A stretch of 40,033 nt of DNA, taken from UHGV virus genome UHGV-0235137. One strand, written 5' to 3'. The notes under the pieces were generated by a model. The model ran no database searches. It saw only the letters and a list, made by a program, of their open reading frames with translations, and had not been told where the DNA came from. This document shows, one piece after another, positions 94 through 4,621 of this stretch; the stretch's first letter is position 1; each line of letters starts with the position of its first letter. Position numbers and translations under genes: made by a program. The stretch comes from a virus.

Positions 94-170
94 GGTTAGG
101 AAGCACATAAGGTATGTGCGGTCGCCTGTTAAGCGAATGGCACAGGGTTCGAATCCCTGACTAACCGCCA
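94..170 (+). tRNA. tRNA-Asn (anticodon GUU)
   Basis: 7-bp acceptor ggttagg/actaacc (6 pairs plus one mismatch), T-arm caggg-ttcgaat-ccctg, anticodon loop ctGTTaa, CCA encoded at 168-170. Confidence 0.8.
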
Positions 171-179
171 AATTTAAAT

Positions 180-267
180 GTGTCGTTATCCCGTAGATGG
201 TAGCGGTGGGGACTGTAAATCCCTTGTCATTGAGACTCGGTAGGTTCGACTCCTACACGGCACACCA
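180..267 (+). tRNA. tRNA-Tyr (anticodon GUA), long variable arm
   Basis: acceptor gtgtcgt/acggcac, anticodon hairpin gggga-ctGTAaa-tccct, long variable arm, T-arm gtagg-ttcgact-cctac, CCA at 265-267. Confidence 0.85.
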
Positions 268-273
268 AATAAA

Positions 274-351
274 GGTTATGTAGTTTAATCTGGTTAAAAT
301 ACTCCCCTGTCACGGGAGATGATGAGGGTTCAAATCCCTTCGTAACCGCCA
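274..351 (+). tRNA. tRNA-Asp (anticodon GUC)
   Basis: acceptor ggttatg/cgtaacc, anticodon hairpin ctccc-ctGTCac-gggag, T-loop ttcaaat, CCA at 349-351. Confidence 0.85.
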
Positions 352-810
352 AATTATAATAAGTATTTCAAGATGATGTTTTGAGAGGGCTATTTAGCCC
401 CTCCCTTAAAGAGTTCTTACGAGTATTCTTTAAAGGAGCAGAAGACCAAATTCAGCAAGTACGTATGATATTTTCAAGCCAATTTAATTTTGAAAAAAAT
501 TTAAAACTTGGTCTGGCTCAACAAATTTACAGAAGACCGTTTACAGCAAAACTTAAACAATCTATTTCTCCGGTAAAGAAAAGGCGAAGGTTCGATTCCT
601 TCACTCGGCAGACGTCGAGTTGGTGTAATGGTAGCACTTAAGATGATAAACAACGGTCTGGTAATTATCTTTGTAGATAAGTTATTAAGCTTACCTGTGA
701 GTATGCGACCACAAAGGGTGAAAGGGTAAATTCTAGATTTAAACCCAACAAGGCACATCGCTACAGACCTTAAGCAAGTCTGGGTAGCTTATCTACAAAG
801 ATAATTTAAT

Positions 811-886
811 GGAAGTGTAGCAGAATGGTGATGCGGCAGACTTTTAATCTGACAGGCGATGGGTTCGAATCCCTCCACTTCTACCA
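811..886 (+). tRNA. tRNA-Lys (anticodon UUU), copy 1
   Basis: acceptor ggaagtg/cacttct, anticodon loop ctTTTaa, T-loop ttcgaat, CCA at 884-886; near-identical paralog at 2431-2506. Confidence 0.7.
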
Positions 887-890
887 ATAT

Positions 891-967
891 GGTTCAGTCG
901 CAGATAAGGTAATGCAGGGGTCTCATAAGCCCTATGAATGTGGGTTCGATTCCCATCTGAACCTCCA
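891..967 (+). tRNA. tRNA-Met (anticodon CAU; initiator, elongator or Ile2 type not resolved)
   Basis: perfect acceptor ggttcag/ctgaacc, anticodon hairpin ggggt-ctCATaa-gccct, T-arm gtggg-ttcgatt-cccat, CCA at 965-967. Confidence 0.85.
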
Positions 968-968
968 A

Positions 969-1044
969 GCTGGTATAGTTAAGAAGGTTATAACACTCCC
1001 CTGATAAGGGAACATCGGTGGTTCGATTCCACCTACCAGTACCA
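969..1044 (+). tRNA. tRNA-Ile (anticodon GAU)
   Basis: acceptor gctggta/taccagt, anticodon loop ctGATaa, T-arm ggtgg-ttcgatt-ccacc, CCA at 1042-1044. Confidence 0.85.
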
Positions 1045-1059
1045 ATTTCAATAAAGTTG

Positions 1060-1088
1060 TTGACATTGAGATGTGACCACTTTATAGT
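1060..1088 (+). promoter_or_regulatory. sigma70-type promoter: -35 TTGACA (1060-1065), 17-bp spacer, -10 TATAGT (1083-1088)
   Basis: exact -35 consensus, 17-nt spacer and a 5/6 -10 hexamer, directly downstream of tRNA-Ile. Confidence 0.5.
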
Positions 1089-1321
1089 AACCTTAGTTTT
1101 CGTTGCGTAGCGTCTATTTTGCAAATTTAAAATAAATGCAAACGACAATGTTTTTCTGGCAGTAGCTTGATAGGCTAAACACCAGTGAGGTCTTCCAATC
1201 CCTCATCAAAGAATTTGGCGTACTCGCCCACGGTATGATTAATAAGGTGGGCAACATTCTAAAGGGTATCCCTTATGGGGCTTGGCTTAAATGCAATGAG
1301 TACCCTTTAAAATGTTAATTA

Positions 1322-1403
1322 CGGGGCGTATCTCAGCGGTCTTCTAAACCGCCGTTAACCGAGTAAGTGGAGTATGCGGGTTCGAGTCCTGCCGCCTCGA
1401 CCA
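1322..1403 (+). tRNA. non-canonical tRNA-like gene; anticodon hairpin suggests Arg (UCU), but D-arm not identifiable
   Basis: 7-bp acceptor cggggcg/cgcctcg, canonical T-arm gcggg-ttcgagt-cctgc, CCA at 1401-1403, hairpin gcggt-ctTCTaa-accgc; only 7 nt between acceptor and that hairpin and 23 nt after it. Confidence 0.5.
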
Positions 1404-1418
1404 ATTTTGGATGAAATC

Positions 1419-1766
1419 ATGAAAACTTGTATTAGGTGCAAACTTAGCAAGGATGAAAGTGATTTCTACATGAAAGATGGTAGGAGAACTCATTCATACT
1501 GTAAAAAGTGTGTTAATGAGCAAACCATAGAAAGACAAAGAGCACTTAAACTTTCAGCTATTGAGTACAAAGGTGGGGTTTGTCATGATTGTGGTAAAAG
1601 GTATCATCCAGCAGTGTATGACTTCCATCATTTGAATCCTTCAGAGAAAGATTTTAACATTGGTCATAGAAAAAGTCTTAAGTTCTCTCAGGAGCTAAAG
1701 GACGAACTTGACAAATGTGTTTTGCTATGTTCAAATTGCCATAGGGTAAGACATGCAAAGTATTAG
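1419..1766 (+). CDS. HNH endonuclease (zinc-finger-containing, homing-type)
   Basis: ORF track 1374-1766 trimmed to the first ATG outside the upstream tRNA; CxxC pairs and HH...N...CxxCH motif (FHHLNP...CSNCHRVRH); paralog of 2684-3097. Confidence 0.8.
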   Translation: MKTCIRCKLSKDESDFYMKDGRRTHSYCKKCVNEQTIERQRALKLSAIEYKGGVCHDCGKRYHPAVYDFHHLNPSEKDFNIGHRKSLKFSQELKDELDKCVLLCSNCHRVRHAKY

Positions 1767-3175: not shown

Positions 3176-3271
3176 ATTCAGAGGTCAAGTGAAAGACCGC
3201 TTTGAGTCAACTGAAGACCGTAACAAATCCCACGGAGTTGAGTTAGCGGCACAACTTCAGACCTCTTTCAT

Positions 3272-3346
3272 ACTCGCTTAGTTTATATGGTAAAACATCA
3301 CCCTTACAAGATGAAGAAAAAGGTTCAAGTCCTTTAGTGAGTACCA
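3272..3346 (+). tRNA. tRNA-Val (anticodon UAC)
   Basis: acceptor actcgct/agtgagt, D-arm gttt-atatggta-aaac, anticodon loop ctTACaa, T-arm aaagg-ttcaagt-ccttt, CCA at 3344-3346. Confidence 0.8.
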
Positions 3347-3347
3347 T

Positions 3348-3426
3348 GTTCCAGTATCCCAATTGGCAGAGAGGCCAGACTTAAAATCTGTGTTATGTAT
3401 CGGTTCGAATCCGATATGGAGTACCA
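3348..3426 (+). tRNA. tRNA with anticodon UAA (Leu by anticodon) but short variable arm
   Basis: perfect T-arm atcgg-ttcgaat-ccgat, anticodon hairpin caga-ctTAAaa-tctg, acceptor gttccag/atggagt (6 of 7 pairs), A73, CCA at 3424-3426. Confidence 0.6.
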
Positions 3427-3431
3427 AATTT

Positions 3432-3507
3432 AGCGGTATAGCATAACTGGCAATGCAGCAGTCTCTGAAGCTGTCTTATTAAGGTTCAAATCCTTATGCC
3501 GCTGCCA
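3432..3507 (+). tRNA. tRNA-Gln (anticodon CUG)
   Basis: acceptor agcggta/tgccgct, anticodon hairpin gcagt-ctCTGaa-gctgt, perfect T-arm taagg-ttcaaat-cctta, CCA at 3505-3507. Confidence 0.8.
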
Positions 3508-3538
3508 CTTCTAAGGATTCTTACGAGAGTCCTTAAAT

Positions 3539-3614
3539 GTGGCCTTATCATAAATGGTAATGACCCATGCTGTGAACATGGTCTATACGGGTTCAAATCC
3601 CGTAGGTCACCCCA
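3539..3614 (+). tRNA. tRNA-His (anticodon GUG)
   Basis: acceptor gtggcct/aggtcac, perfect anticodon hairpin ccatg-ctGTGaa-catgg, perfect T-arm acggg-ttcaaat-cccgt, discriminator C, CCA at 3612-3614. Confidence 0.85.
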
Positions 3615-3619
3615 ATTTA

Positions 3620-3696
3620 TAGTCCAAGTAGCTTATATGGTTAAAGCGCGTGTCTGAAAAACATGAGAAGAGGGTTCAAATCCCACTGGACTACCA
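3620..3696 (+). tRNA. tRNA-Phe (anticodon GAA)
   Basis: acceptor tagtcca/tggacta, D-arm gctt-...-aagc, anticodon hairpin cgtgt-ctGAAaa-acatg, T-loop ttcaaat; exact 3' end uncertain by 1-2 nt. Confidence 0.8.
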
Positions 3697-3712
3697 ATTT
3701 CAAAGGTGCTTA

Positions 3713-4447
3713 ATGAAAGAGATGACAGAACAAGGTAAGGAGATTTTTAATCTCTTAAAAACCGGTAGAGGGTTTTCTAATCCCCTTATTACTGGTGCAG
3801 CAGTTCTAGGTGGAACCGTGGCTGCCTCTACATCACTTGTAAGCTCTATTAGCTCTGTAACAGACCCTACAATGAAGGATAAGCTCATTGCTGCTGGACT
3901 TACAACAGTTCTGCTTAATAGCTTTACAACGAGTCTGACAAGCACTACATCAACTACTAAGACATTGACAGATTATGGTCAAAAGTCTATTGATGAGTTT
4001 TCCTCACGTATGCAGGTAGCAAAAGGCTACTCCAATGTTATGGGTGCAGCAGGAGAGCAAGTTGGTTGTACACCATTTAGTGGTATTATGGGTGTTGCTA
4101 CAGAGTATGGTCAAAAAGCTATTGACACAATTAACAGTGCACTAGACGGTGTTAATGATGTATTAAGTGACTTACAAGATGCTATTGATAAAGGTCTTGA
4201 TACTGTTTCTGATTTAGCTAACCAAGCTGTTAGCAAGATTAATGAAGGTATCTCAAAGATTACAGCTTATGCAGATGAAGTTGTGCAGATGATTGAAGAA
4301 GAAGCTGCCCTTATTGCAGAGTACCTTAAAACAAATATCAATGGGTTCTTAGCAGGTATCTTACCAGACTGGTTTGACGACGCTTGTAAAACTGGTGTAA
4401 TTGATACTATTGCAACACCAGAAATGAAGAACGCATTACAGAAATAA
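3713..4447 (+). CDS. hypothetical Ser/Thr-rich protein with a hydrophobic N-terminal segment, embedded in the tRNA array
   Basis: ORF track 3650-4447 trimmed to the first ATG after tRNA-Phe; internal repeat YGQK(S/A)ID; no recognisable catalytic motif. Confidence 0.6.
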   Translation: MKEMTEQGKEIFNLLKTGRGFSNPLITGAAVLGGTVAASTSLVSSISSVTDPTMKDKLIAAGLTTVLLNSFTTSLTSTTSTTKTLTDYGQKSIDEFSSRMQVAKGYSNVMGAAGEQVGCTPFSGIMGVATEYGQKAIDTINSALDGVNDVLSDLQDAIDKGLDTVSDLANQAVSKINEGISKITAYADEVVQMIEEEAALIAEYLKTNINGFLAGILPDWFDDACKTGVIDTIATPEMKNALQK

Positions 4448-4448
4448 T

Positions 4449-4541
4449 GGAAGATTAACCCTAAAAGGTAAGGGAGCAGTTTGCTAAACTGCCAGTAGCT
4501 GAGAAATCGGTGTACCAGTTCAAGTCTGGTATCTTCCTCCA
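4449..4541 (+). tRNA. tRNA-Ser (anticodon GCU), long variable arm
   Basis: perfect acceptor ggaagat/atcttcc, perfect anticodon hairpin gcagt-ttGCTaa-actgc, 21-nt variable arm, perfect T-arm accag-ttcaagt-ctggt, CCA at 4539-4541. Confidence 0.85.
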
Positions 4542-4545
4542 ATTT

Positions 4546-4621
4546 GAATCCGTGACAGAAATGGTTATGTGCCTGTCTGCAAAACAGGTTTATAAGGGTT
4601 CGAGTCCCTTCGGATTCTCCA
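4546..4621 (+). tRNA. tRNA-Cys (anticodon GCA)
   Basis: perfect acceptor gaatccg/cggattc, perfect anticodon hairpin cctgt-ctGCAaa-acagg, T-arm aaggg-ttcgagt-ccctt, CCA at 4619-4621. Confidence 0.85.

Follow-up and report, generated by a model that had tools for sequence, protein, structure and literature searches.

The stretch analysed here, referred to throughout as the window, is one strand (40,033 nucleotides, nt) of the virus genome UHGV-0235137 in UHGV, and its beginning carries a dense array of tRNA genes (positions 94-4621). Because its nucleotide identity and gene order match those of the phages Felix O1 and SP22, the region is assigned to the Felix O1-type tRNA cluster (Felixounavirus, Ounavirinae), which is already well known and annotated in hundreds of records. 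It is considered quite probable that this cluster provides an A/T-rich phage with decoders of its own and, within the same array, encodes Y RNA-like modules bound by a Ro60-fold protein and a rearranged tRNA-Arg(UCU)-like gene, here named argX, that decodes AGA. The array as an earlier note had described it from the sequence alone, and its rationale in codon supply, are known and indeed textbook for Felix O1-like phages. What is new is the presence within the array of a group of Y RNA-like genes linked with a Ro60-fold protein, and of two non-canonical tRNA-type genes, argX and a tRNA-Trp(CCA)-like gene named trpX.

Megablast of window positions 1-4860 against 50,697 phage records returned 351 matches, 129 of them at a query coverage of at least 80 %. 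The best matches were the Escherichia coli phage SP22 (95.0 % identity) and the Salmonella phage Felix O1 (93.8 %), at 99 % coverage, both of which belong to Felixounavirus in the Ounavirinae. In the annotated loci of these two phages, the tRNA genes, the HNH genes and a conserved hypothetical gene follow one another in the same order as here, up to the large terminase gene; in the window, the terminase (5051-6667) and portal (6675-8150) genes stand directly after the cluster. Shared with the clusters of Felix O1 and the Ounavirinae in general are the order between a DUF2828 gene and the terminase gene, the interspersed HNH genes and a DUF7217 gene. Felixounavirus genomes have 17-23 tRNAs each and several homing endonucleases (PMC8300805), and the Felix O1 cluster was described by Whichard et al. 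2010, as cited in PMC8300805.

The structured RNA genes on which the finding rests are the following.

18-88, + strand: Y1, short Y RNA-like module in the Met-Asn spacer (minimum free energy (MFE) fold; match to covariance model R1 at 14-91, 43.5 bits, E 3e-6)
434-522, + strand: Y2, short Y RNA-like module with outer stem GAGC/GCUC, inner stem AGACCAA/UUGGUCU and CAGCAA (fold, covariation)
525-667, + strand: Y3, YrlA-like Y RNA (fold, covariation in nine Ounavirinae, R1)
1322-1403, + strand: argX, non-canonical tRNA-Arg(UCU)-like gene (Rfam tRNA, 31.7 bits over 1322-1400)
1903-1987, + strand: trpX, non-canonical tRNA-Trp(CCA)-like gene (called only in the mitochondrial mode of ARAGORN)

Y RNA-like modules and the Ro60-like protein

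The motif pair AGAAGAC...GGTCTGG within 200 nt occurs in the window only at 18-88, 434-522 and 525-667, and a fourth module (Y0) is present in the Glu-Met spacer of relatives, just upstream of the window. All modules have a 4 bp outer stem, an asymmetric loop of 3 nt against 1 nt, a 7 bp inner stem and then CAGCAA; in Y1 these are UUGC/GCAA, AGA/G and AGACCGU/ACGGUCU, followed by the conserved CAGCAA. Y1 and Y2 consist of the closing helix and motif only, like YrlB. In Y3, the closing stem (527-530/661-664 and 534-541/652-659) encloses a V hairpin (565-581), a T arm (586-602; GAAGG-UUCGAUU-CCUUC), a closed 7 bp acceptor-like hairpin (603-609/614-620) and a D arm (623-637; GUGU-AAUGGUA-GCAC). 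This order of V, T, closed acceptor-like and D stem-loops, held within a helix of the 5′ and 3′ strands, is that by which YrlA is defined (PMC4201824). The acceptor-like stem of the Mycobacterium smegmatis RNA, also of 7 bp, is a substrate of RNase P (PMC4201824).

The helices are supported by covariation. Across 19 distinct paralogous and orthologous copies, the closing stem is paired in 209 out of 209 cells, against 21-45 % for slid partners, and five of its 11 pairs show compensatory changes; the outer stem appears as UUGC/GCAA, GAGC/GCUC, UUAC/GUAA or UGAC/GUCA and the inner stem as AGACCGU/ACGGUCU or AGACCAA/UUGGUCU. For Y3 in nine Ounavirinae, 98.3 % of cells are paired (42-53 % when slid), with three compensatory pairs in the acceptor-like hairpin, which covaries between genera (ACUCGGC/GUCGAGU, ACCCUUC/GAAGGGU, ACACG/CGUGU). 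A CUUA/UAAG helix drawn round the tRNA-like domain of Y3 by the MFE fold is not kept in the phages Moogle, Sf16 and SUSP2 and was rejected.

It could be argued that the modules are not functional RNAs, being instead spacer hairpins that guide processing or act as attenuators, or debris of recombination between tandem tRNAs, in which a T arm is followed by the next D arm. The modules are indeed located exactly in the spacers between tRNA genes, dimeric tRNAs are known false matches to YrlA (PMC4201824), and the single-sequence MFE z-scores of the modules are modest (-1.5 to -2.1). Against this, the acceptor-like strands pair with one another and covary across genera, the closing stems covary among four paralogues, and the layout recurs in loci free of tRNAs. 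When the covariance model R1, made from the nine Ounavirinae Y3 sequences, was searched against 75 viral contigs encoding DUF2828 proteins that are about 40 % identical, 66 matches were obtained at E <= 10, 65 of which lie on the strand of the DUF2828 gene, and in 28 of the 75 loci there is a match within 300 nt of that gene. The best of these distant matches keep the layout with completely different stem sequences. In a 19-sequence alignment (A5), 93.9 % of cells are paired against 35-50 % when slid, and 27 out of 33 pairs are compensatory, values that are somewhat inflated by the fitting of this alignment to R1. The Rfam YrlA model matches several of the same distant elements below its threshold (29-42 bits, E down to 7e-6), and in mycobacteriophage Samty it converges with R1 on one element 130 nt downstream of the Ro-like gene. 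An origin as non-functional spacer or debris is therefore regarded as improbable.

Most likely, judging from linkage and structure, the modules are the partner RNAs of a DUF2828 protein. In Felix O1, Moogle, Sf16 and SUSP2, a protein of 471 amino acids (aa; Pfam DUF2828 and DUF7788, 'RNA-binding protein' in NCBI) is encoded directly upstream of tRNA-Pro. In Foldseek, an AlphaFold model of a 98 %-identical protein (predicted local distance difference test, pLDDT, 80; predicted template modelling score, pTM, 0.78) has Ro60/TROVE structures as its top 12 PDB matches, over the full length, with E 1e-7 to 7e-6 and template modelling (TM) scores of 0.46-0.59; the Ro60 of Thermus phage phiLo is the best, and Deinococcus radiodurans Rsr and the Xenopus and human Ro60 proteins are among them. 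The model has the HEAT-like ring and the C-terminal vWA domain with the MIDAS motif (for metal ion-dependent adhesion site) of Ro60, and its DVSGSM aligns to the Ro60 MIDAS sequence DVSASM. At the sequence level, Pfam places the protein in DUF2828 and DUF7788 only and not in TROVE, a PDB profile search ranks Ro60 first at E 0.74, a phmmer search of Felix O1 ORF42 (ORF, open reading frame) against PDB sequences gave nothing relevant, and NCBIfam gave nothing. The DUF2828 family has members in 710 phage records, among them the 'Ro-like RNA binding protein' of mycobacteriophages, to which the protein is 33-34 % identical along its full length. YrlA RNAs are expected on the same strand as a Ro60 orthologue and less than 4 kb from it; ORF42 of Felix O1 ends at 23533, and Y0-Y3 lie about 330-1180 nt downstream.

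This arrangement is similar to that of rsr-yrlBA-rtcBA in Salmonella (PMC4201824), in having a Ro60-fold gene followed on the same strand by several small RNAs within about 1.2 kb. As in bacterial Rsr/YrlA systems, one RNA (Y3) has the V, T, closed acceptor-like and D stem-loops and the others are shorter and YrlB-like. Unlike those systems, the phage RNAs carry AGAAGACC...CAGCAA instead of GNCGAAN0-1G, the protein is DUF2828 plus DUF7788 and not TROVE, and the modules are interleaved with genuine tRNA genes. Nor was RtcB seen beside the modules here, in contrast to the bacterial operon, which is echoed in Listeria phage cka15, where the DUF2828 gene lies between a tRNA cluster and an RtcB-type ligase gene. 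Inside the cka15 tRNA cluster there is also a match to ROOL RNA (L091:2428-2979; 90.1 bits, the gathering score being 99.1; E 2e-17), which lies upstream of the DUF2828 gene at a distance of about 1 kb, the RtcB-type 'tRNA splicing ligase' gene being 1.3 kb downstream. Pairs of Ro60 and Y RNA are known in mycobacteriophages, CcrColossus and Bacillus phage G, and phiLo has a Ro60 with Yrl1 and Yrl2 (PMC12135203); Chen et al. 2014 list 22 phages that have YrlA. For Felixounavirus, the one statement found is the speculation in a preprint that some annotated tRNAs of Bas63 might be Y RNAs, whereas the modules identified here are unannotated spacers, which GenBank records almost never annotate. The literature on DUF2828, on Felix O1 with Y RNA or Ro60 and on D-arm-less phage tRNA-Arg, the coverage of which was incomplete, gave no description of these RNAs.

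In the mechanism proposed, the three modules would be released by tRNA-processing enzymes and bound by the upstream Ro60-fold DUF2828 protein, to give a phage Ro60-Y RNA particle. The protein gp130 of Bas63, whose gene immediately precedes the tRNAs, is reported to have a Ro60-like fold and to counter the ppl defence system; expression of gp130 alone, by plasmid or by T7, restored plaquing on ppl, and this Bas63 member is also reported to improve T7 growth (preprint). Gene position and the Ro60-like fold are the grounds on which gp130 is equated with the DUF2828 protein expected for the window.

Several points, besides the inflated pairing in alignment A5, speak against a phage Ro60-Y RNA system in this form. 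The DUF2828 gene is outside the window, which starts after it, therefore both its presence in this phage and its linkage to the Y modules are taken from relatives more than 93 % identical. Since gp130 is sufficient alone, the anti-defence activity may not need phage Y RNAs. Rfam YrlA has no match on the modules at 434-667 even at E <= 10 (its gathering score is 69 bits), and the GNCGAAN0-1G motif is absent from the modules, in which the 5′ strands read CAGAAGACC(G/A)(U/A)...CAGCAA; for these two reasons they are named Y RNA-like modules of YrlA architecture and not members of RF02553. Finally, identities, structures, covariation, synteny and codon statistics are what was observed, so that expression, processing, Ro60 binding and, for argX, charging and decoding in this phage are sequence-based predictions, as is any defence phenotype.

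In Rfam searches at E <= 10 over 1-5000 and 1-820, no non-tRNA family was found for the spacers. A YrlA match at 3560-3682 (17.3 bits) is merely the His and Phe tRNAs and was discarded. Two conserved hairpins lie at 387-438, just upstream of Y2, the second of which competes with the Y2 outer stem, and a UACG-loop hairpin in the Gln-His gap (3513-3537; repeat D15) resembles them; these hairpins may be processing signals.

The non-canonical tRNA-type genes argX and trpX

The slot of argX is filled by a canonical tRNA-Arg(UCU) in Sf16, Moogle, SUSP2 and two metagenomic Felixounavirus contigs, and none of the 11 Ounavirinae loci examined has both forms. The gene argX consists of a 7 bp acceptor stem, UA, CUC, an anticodon arm with the invariant loop CUUCUAA, CGUUAACC, a GAG that pairs with the CUC, a GGA-containing strand, a T arm, A73 and CCA. 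Infernal aligns it with normal acceptor, anticodon and T arms, with 4 nt replacing the 15 nt D arm and a 20 nt insert after the anticodon arm. The most economical reading of these features is that argX is a functional, rearranged tRNA-Arg(UCU) that would read AGA.

AGA is the codon for which this phage differs most from its host. The largest phage/host excess is that of AGA (17-21-fold), followed by AGG (8-fold), ACA (5-fold) and TCA and ACT (about 3.7-fold), and AGA makes up 21-25 per 1000 codons in the phage against 1.2 in E. coli. In the tRNA-Arg(UCU) slot, argX would decode this most over-used codon.

The elements of a tRNA are kept in argX while its stem sequences vary. In an alignment of seven diverse copies (MAFFT), 98.6 % of cells are paired, against 38-50 % when slid, and 10 out of 20 pairs are compensatory; among these, a compensated change from CUC/GAG to CAC/GUG supports the 3 bp helix enclosing the anticodon arm. 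In 25 distinct sequences there are 20 acceptor stems (nearly all paired 7/7), 13 anticodon stems (all 5/5) and nine T stems, position 73 is G or A, and CCA is present in most. The strand after the CUC/GAG helix reads AAKYGGAGUAU. The main determinant for arginyl-tRNA synthetase (ArgRS) in E. coli is A20, and the G-G-A of argX resembles G18-G19-A20. As the 3 bp helix is kept round the anticodon arm and the GG-A strand follows it, the D arm is viewed as rearranged and not lost; if argX is a working tRNA, this rearrangement would leave the elbow-to-anticodon stack with about 9-10 base-pair layers, which is close to the canonical length. The D-arm-lacking tRNA-Ser(AGY) of metazoan mitochondria is similar in having acceptor, T and anticodon arms and no conventional D hairpin; unlike mitochondrial tRNAs of this type, argX is encoded by a phage, would need to function on bacterial ribosomes and has a D-stem-like helix of 3 bp that encloses the anticodon arm.

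The gene is not confined to Felix O1-like phages. It is matched in 273 phage records, where it is unannotated or listed as 'tRNA-OTHER', and ARAGORN calls none of 40 copies. The reading of argX as a decaying pseudogene was rejected. Among the carriers are the T5-like phage Roth37, KPP-1 and W70 of the Vequintavirinae, 'inny' of the Stephanstirmvirinae, the 348 kb jumbo phage SHEFM2K and a Vibrio phage; in five out of six loci fetched from other families argX lies within or next to a same-strand tRNA cluster, the record of W70 having no annotated tRNAs. A degenerate 36 nt pattern of argX was found in 39 viral contigs of 14-360 kb and, in 185,579 species genomes of bacteria and archaea, in a single contig only, which points to a phage-specific gene that is widespread across phage families. 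In 35 out of 40 argX loci there are tRNAs within 1.5 kb, all on the same strand.

A non-decoding role is possible, if somewhat doubtful: argX could be a tRNA mimic or decoy for a nuclease or modification enzyme acting on tRNA-Arg, a regulatory RNA, or an allele immune to a homing endonuclease. Its lack of a conventional D arm would fit such a role, as would its anticodon hairpin, which closely copies the tRNA-Arg(UCU) anticodon arm, as a decoy would. For the immune allele, an HNH gene stands directly 3′ of argX both in the window (1419-1766) and in the unrelated T5-like Klebsiella phage Roth37 (L092:2598-3107), but most argX copies of other families have no HNH gene adjacent. A separate canonical tRNA-Arg(UCU) is absent from all 40 argX loci, though many hold 15-26 tRNAs, and in the Ounavirinae a single slot carries either one form or the other as its allele, which argues against a role other than decoding. 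So too does the retention of the acceptor stem, G/A73, CCA, T arm, UCU loop and GG-A strand while stem sequences vary freely, and no codon needs a phage tRNA more than AGA does.

For argX as a working tRNA, the difficulty is the absence of a normal D arm, as seen in its predicted structure; no bacterial translation system is known to work with a tRNA of this build. If argX does work as a tRNA-Arg(UCU), it may be, as a tentative extension, that many unrelated families (Felix O1-like, T5-like, rV5/phi92-like and jumbo phages of 250-360 kb) read AGA with it, that its build evades a host activity directed at tRNA-Arg or at the elbow, and that the array together with Ro60 and the Y RNAs forms an island of counter-defence and translation.

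The second non-canonical gene, trpX, combines a 7 bp acceptor stem and G73-CCA with a T arm and an irregular D region, and its anticodon loop (UUCCAAC here, CUCCAAA in most relatives) is closed by a conserved C-A mismatch. It is kept in Felixounavirus, Suspvirus and Mooglevirus. In Sf16 all five pairs of the anticodon stem are changed and are still complementary (AACGG/CCGUU to GUAAG/CUUAC). The gene occurs in 234 records, almost all of Ounavirinae, and is annotated in none. It may be that trpX supplies the 'missing' Trp decoder in the Ounavirinae.

There is complementarity between the Y modules and argX. The 5′ strand AGAAGACCGU of the modules (24-33, 531-540) is complementary to GCGGUCUUCU (1336-1345), which is the 5′ half of the argX anticodon arm and the anticodon, and it is perfectly complementary to ACGGUCUUCU of the Moogle tRNA-Arg(UCU). 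This could mean that the Y closing helix descended from a tRNA-Arg anticodon arm, or that the RNAs interact, or it could be chance.

The tRNA regions of T5 and T4 are likewise dense arrays on one strand, in which HNH endonuclease genes and additional RNAs, stable or tRNA-like, are present. In the T5 region (30284-33949 of AY543070), seven stable RNAs are annotated, three of which, RNA1, RNA2 and RNA3, are described as 'tRNA-like stable RNA'. These are not kin of the Y modules or of argX, matching neither R1 nor argX: in the T5 region R1 picks up only T-arm fragments, and BLAST finds no match to argX. Unlike the clusters considered here, the 14 kb T5 tRNA region has no annotated DUF2828 or Ro60-like gene.

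Canonical tRNA genes, codon supply and possible counter-defence

The canonical tRNA genes, with the truncated gene at the window start, are listed below; each was found by both ARAGORN and Rfam unless other evidence is given.

1-16, + strand: 3′ end of tRNA-Met(CAU), cut by the window start (aligns to the last 16 nt of the Felix O1 tRNA-Met)
94-170, + strand: tRNA-Asn(GUU), anticodon loop identical to host
180-267, + strand: tRNA-Tyr(GUA), long variable arm, loop identical to host (ARAGORN; in Rfam only a tRNA-Sec-clan match, 29.6 bits)
274-351, + strand: tRNA-Asp(GUC), loop identical to host (Rfam 65.2 bits)
811-886, + strand: tRNA-Lys(UUU), copy 1, anticodon stem unlike E. coli lysT at 28:42 and 29:41
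891-967, + strand: tRNA-Met(CAU), elongator-type (1:72 paired)
969-1044, + strand: tRNA-Ile(GAU)
2000-2089, + strand: tRNA-Ser(UGA)
2346-2423, + strand: tRNA-Leu(UAG), short variable arm, A73 (Rfam 40.0 bits)
2431-2506, + strand: tRNA-Lys(UUU), copy 2, chimera (alignment A6; repeat family D6)
2513-2588, + strand: tRNA-Ala(UGC)
2595-2669, + strand: tRNA-Gly(UCC)
3099-3175, + strand: tRNA-Thr(UGU)
3272-3346, + strand: tRNA-Val(UAC)
3348-3426, + strand: tRNA-Leu(UAA), hybrid, short variable arm, A73 (Rfam 34.7 bits; pairwise alignments to SP22)
3432-3507, + strand: tRNA-Gln(CUG)
3539-3614, + strand: tRNA-His(GUG), loop unlike host at 32 and 38
3621-3696, + strand: tRNA-Phe(GAA)
4449-4541, + strand: tRNA-Ser(GCU)
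4546-4621, + strand: tRNA-Cys(GCA)

The tRNA genes called by ARAGORN number 19; they all lie within 94-4621 on the + strand, and the rest of the window gave no call. The Rfam tRNA model RF00005 also gave 19 matches at its gathering score, missing Tyr (180-267), which is ARAGORN only, and adding 1322-1400 (31.7 bits), which is Rfam only, therefore the union is 20; 18 of the 19 ARAGORN genes score 32-65 bits against RF00005, as cloverleaves recognised at normal thresholds. With argX (1322-1403) and trpX (1903-1987), the tally is 19 canonical, two non-canonical and one truncated gene, which agrees with the 21 full genes and a partial one counted in the earlier note. Its list of anticodons was also correct, the three it had called atypical being Leu(UAG), Leu(UAA) and 1322-1400, and the predictors did not call far fewer genes. 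Twenty-one tRNA-type genes per 4.6 kb is far above chance. Extra calls made by ARAGORN in relaxed or intron-allowing modes span hundreds of bases and are spurious. The truncated tRNA-Met is placed by alignment, window position 1 being position 301 of the Felix O1 locus L001, in which tRNA-Met is at 240-316 and the aligned part at 301-316. The tRNA-Ser(UGA) gene is the only one in the array without an encoded CCA, its discriminator being followed by CCU. Both Leu tRNAs are 78-79 nt with a short variable arm, unlike bacterial class II tRNA-Leu (that of T5 is 85 nt).

The set fits the A/U-rich codon usage of the phage, which supports the codon supplementation suggested in the earlier note. The window has a G+C content of 39.3 %, against 52.0 % in a 50 kb sample of E. 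coli K-12, and the third codon positions are 29 % A and 41.5 % T in 24 phage structural genes, against 17.6 % and 25.4 % in 41 E. coli genes. In every case where alternatives exist, the phage encodes the U34 species (Ser UGA, Leu UAG and UAA, Ala UGC, Gly UCC, Thr UGU, Val UAC, Lys UUU). When the upstream tRNA-Pro(UGG) and tRNA-Glu(UUC) are added, the canonical set can read 84 % of structural-gene codons, and the mean log2 phage/host ratio is 0.02 for readable against -1.02 for unreadable codons (Mann-Whitney p = 0.005). The approximately 21 tRNA-type genes, mostly with U34 or G34 and reading A/U-ending codons, would thus supply this A/T-rich phage with decoders of its own, and so would allow efficient translation of late structural genes with less dependence on the host tRNA pool. 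Codon bias as the explanation is tempered by two points: when the test is limited to exact cognate codons, it gives a weak signal (p = 0.086), and a near-complete tRNA set fits independence from the host pool equally well. The tRNAs of Bas63 are mostly non-essential on four E. coli strains (PMC11482910).

The earlier note had also proposed that the set may serve counter-defence, as it includes the targets of anticodon nucleases (Lys-UUU for PrrC; Tyr, His, Asn and Asp for the colicin E5 type). For Lys, Tyr, Asn and Asp, the argument from escape loops is not supported. Compared with the seven-nt host anticodon loops tabulated for the sister phage Sf14 (PMC12482277, Table 8), the loops of both Lys(UUU) copies and of Tyr, Asn and Asp are identical to those of the host and have none of the loop mutations that evade nucleases (PMC10264068), therefore there is no sequence sign of nuclease-proof tRNAs for those targets. 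The loop of His differs at positions 32 and 38, and those of Gln, Phe, Cys, Ser(GCU), Ala and both Leu also differ from the host, mostly at 32/38. Counter-defence may still operate by supply, given that T5-type tRNA-Tyr, and tRNA-Lys given to T1 or T7, rescue through supply alone (PMC11555353). In E. coli tRNA-Lys, the cut made by the PARIS nuclease AriB falls between 40 and 41, and it is the anticodon stem-loop that the enzyme recognises (PMC11464382). In the phage tRNA-Lys, A29-U41 and C28-G42 stand in place of the U29-A41 and U28-A42 of lysT, and 29:41 adjoins the cut site; as a hint of counter-defence this difference is suggestive only.

On the further proposal that the array is kept mainly as counter-defence, with uncleavable or abundant tRNAs replacing those host tRNAs destroyed by PrrC, PARIS, the retron-Eco7 PtuAB or colicin E5/D-like toxins, there is precedent in T5, the tRNA-Lys of which neutralises PARIS, and in T5 and SP15, the tRNA-Tyr of which neutralises retron-Eco7 (PMC11464382, PMC11555353). 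Consistent with it are also the double encoding of Lys(UUU), the second copy having arisen in this phage by conversion of Lys(CUU), the tRNA-Lys stem difference beside the AriB site, and the eight tRNAs other than Lys, Tyr, Asn and Asp that differ from the host at loop positions 32 or 38. The proposal is nonetheless judged unlikely: the Lys, Tyr, Asn and Asp loops are those of the host, nuclease escape was rejected in the analysis of the syntenic Sf14 cluster (PMC12482277), Bas63 can mostly dispense with its tRNAs (PMC11482910), individual tRNAs are freely gained and lost among close relatives, and nearly all amino acids are covered, beyond the known nuclease targets. The only experimental evidence of counter-defence nearby is that for the upstream Ro60-like protein, gp130 of Bas63 against the ppl system.

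Plasticity of the array and its other genes

Two of the tRNA genes are mosaics. In Lys copy 2 (2431-2506), the acceptor and D ends match the tRNA-Lys(CUU) of relatives and the stretch between them, anticodon arm through T loop, is identical in copy 1, pointing to gene conversion from CUU to UUU; relatives have Lys(CUU) where the window phage has Lys(UUU). In tRNA-Leu(UAA) (3348-3426), approximately the first 24 nt derive from Leu(CAA) and the remainder from Leu(UAA), as judged by alignments to SP22. According to these alignments, the Leu/Leu crossover deleted about 0.8 kb with tRNA-Arg(ACG), an ORF48-like coding sequence and tRNA-Gln(UUG), and the window phage is without the Leu(CAA)-Arg(ACG)-ORF48-Gln(UUG) segment of the Felix O1/SP22-type clusters. 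The acceptor stem of the hybrid has a G7-A66 mismatch and an extra G-U pair as a result of this crossover. On sequence comparison, then, recombination between paralogous tRNA genes appears to keep reshaping the set, which agrees with the mostly non-essential tRNAs of Bas63 (PMC11482910).

The remaining features of the region are as follows.

1060-1088, + strand: sigma-70-like promoter match, TTGACA-17-TATAGT, 11/12 (consensus match)
1419-1766, + strand: HNH endonuclease gene 1, 115 aa, putative homing-type (phrog_2255, E 6e-40)
2684-3097, + strand: HNH endonuclease gene 2, 137 aa (phrog_2255, E 2e-41)
3176-3271, + strand: Thr-Val spacer, nearly invariant long hairpin with two GAAGACCG-like motifs (-30 kcal/mol, z = -3.8)
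3713-4447, + strand: DUF7217 protein gene, 244 aa from its ATG (Pfam PF23854, E 1.5e-89; phrog_2114)
4659-4718, + strand: terminator-like hairpin followed by UUUUUU, closing the cluster (-25.4 kcal/mol, z = -5.3)
4784-4807, + strand: second terminator-like hairpin followed by a T run (fold)

The protein genes that the earlier note had placed within the array are real, as shown by the PHROG matches of the two HNH endonucleases and the Pfam match of the DUF7217 protein. The HNH proteins are 35 % identical to one another (BLASTP, E 7e-17) and have a visible CxxC...HH...CxxCH pattern; their scores in Pfam HNH, 16.7 bits for gene 1 and 19.5 for gene 2, fall under the cut-off of 21.4, and phrog_2255 is named 'HNH endonuclease'. 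HNH genes vary in number and position among close relatives, a presence/absence polymorphism of the kind looked for in mobile genes. Felix O1 has three in its cluster, the window and SP22 two each, and one that is extra in Felix O1 (ORF44) is annotated beside the tRNA-Met preceding tRNA-Ile. In locus L007, the gap between Arg(UCU) and Ser(UGA) is only about 240 nt, therefore there is no room for HNH gene 1, and no HNH gene is annotated in the Moogle record within the fetched part of its cluster. Both genes are predicted to be selfish homing-type endonucleases that are gained and lost between close relatives. Sf16 carries a homologous HNH gene after its canonical tRNA-Arg(UCU), at the junction equivalent to that of argX, and there may be a homing site at or near the tRNA-Arg gene. 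Homologues of the DUF7217 gene, of DUF5681 and of a small ORF at 4844 were not found in the 75 distant DUF2828 loci.

Transcription of the cluster would give one or a few polycistronic transcripts in a single direction, bounded downstream by the two terminator-like hairpins, as suggested by the one orientation of the genes, the promoter-like site at 1060-1088 and these hairpins. That site is the best of its kind, and the regional total of such matches is not above shuffled expectation. The ORFs at 381-641 and 1812-2015 overlap RNA genes and spacers, have no family matches and were rejected as genes; likewise, the ORF at 2061-2258 starts inside tRNA-Ser(UGA), matches only a PHROG of unknown function (phrog_36337) and is probably not a real gene.

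The Thr-Val spacer is better conserved than the tRNAs flanking it across Felixounavirus, Suspvirus and Mooglevirus, and because it is almost invariant in these three genera it shows no covariation. Two sequences within it, GAAAGACCGC and UGAAGACCGU, are similar to the motif AGAAGACCGU of the Y modules. Farther along the window, a 30 nt tandem repeat (25060-25118, two copies, 89 % match) lies within an ORF of the tail-fibre region.

Three kinds of conserved structured RNA genes in this array are thus missing from essentially all deposited annotations. Counts of phage tRNAs and analyses of codon adaptation, including those published for the Ounavirinae, accordingly omit the putative decoder of the codon that is most discordant with the host. 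If argX is a tRNA of a bacterial system in which the core departs from the cloverleaf, it would offer a natural case for testing what ArgRS, EF-Tu and the ribosome tolerate. The Y modules, in turn, are candidate RNA partners for a Ro60-like family present in 710 phage records, by which the mechanism of gp130 counter-defence would become testable.

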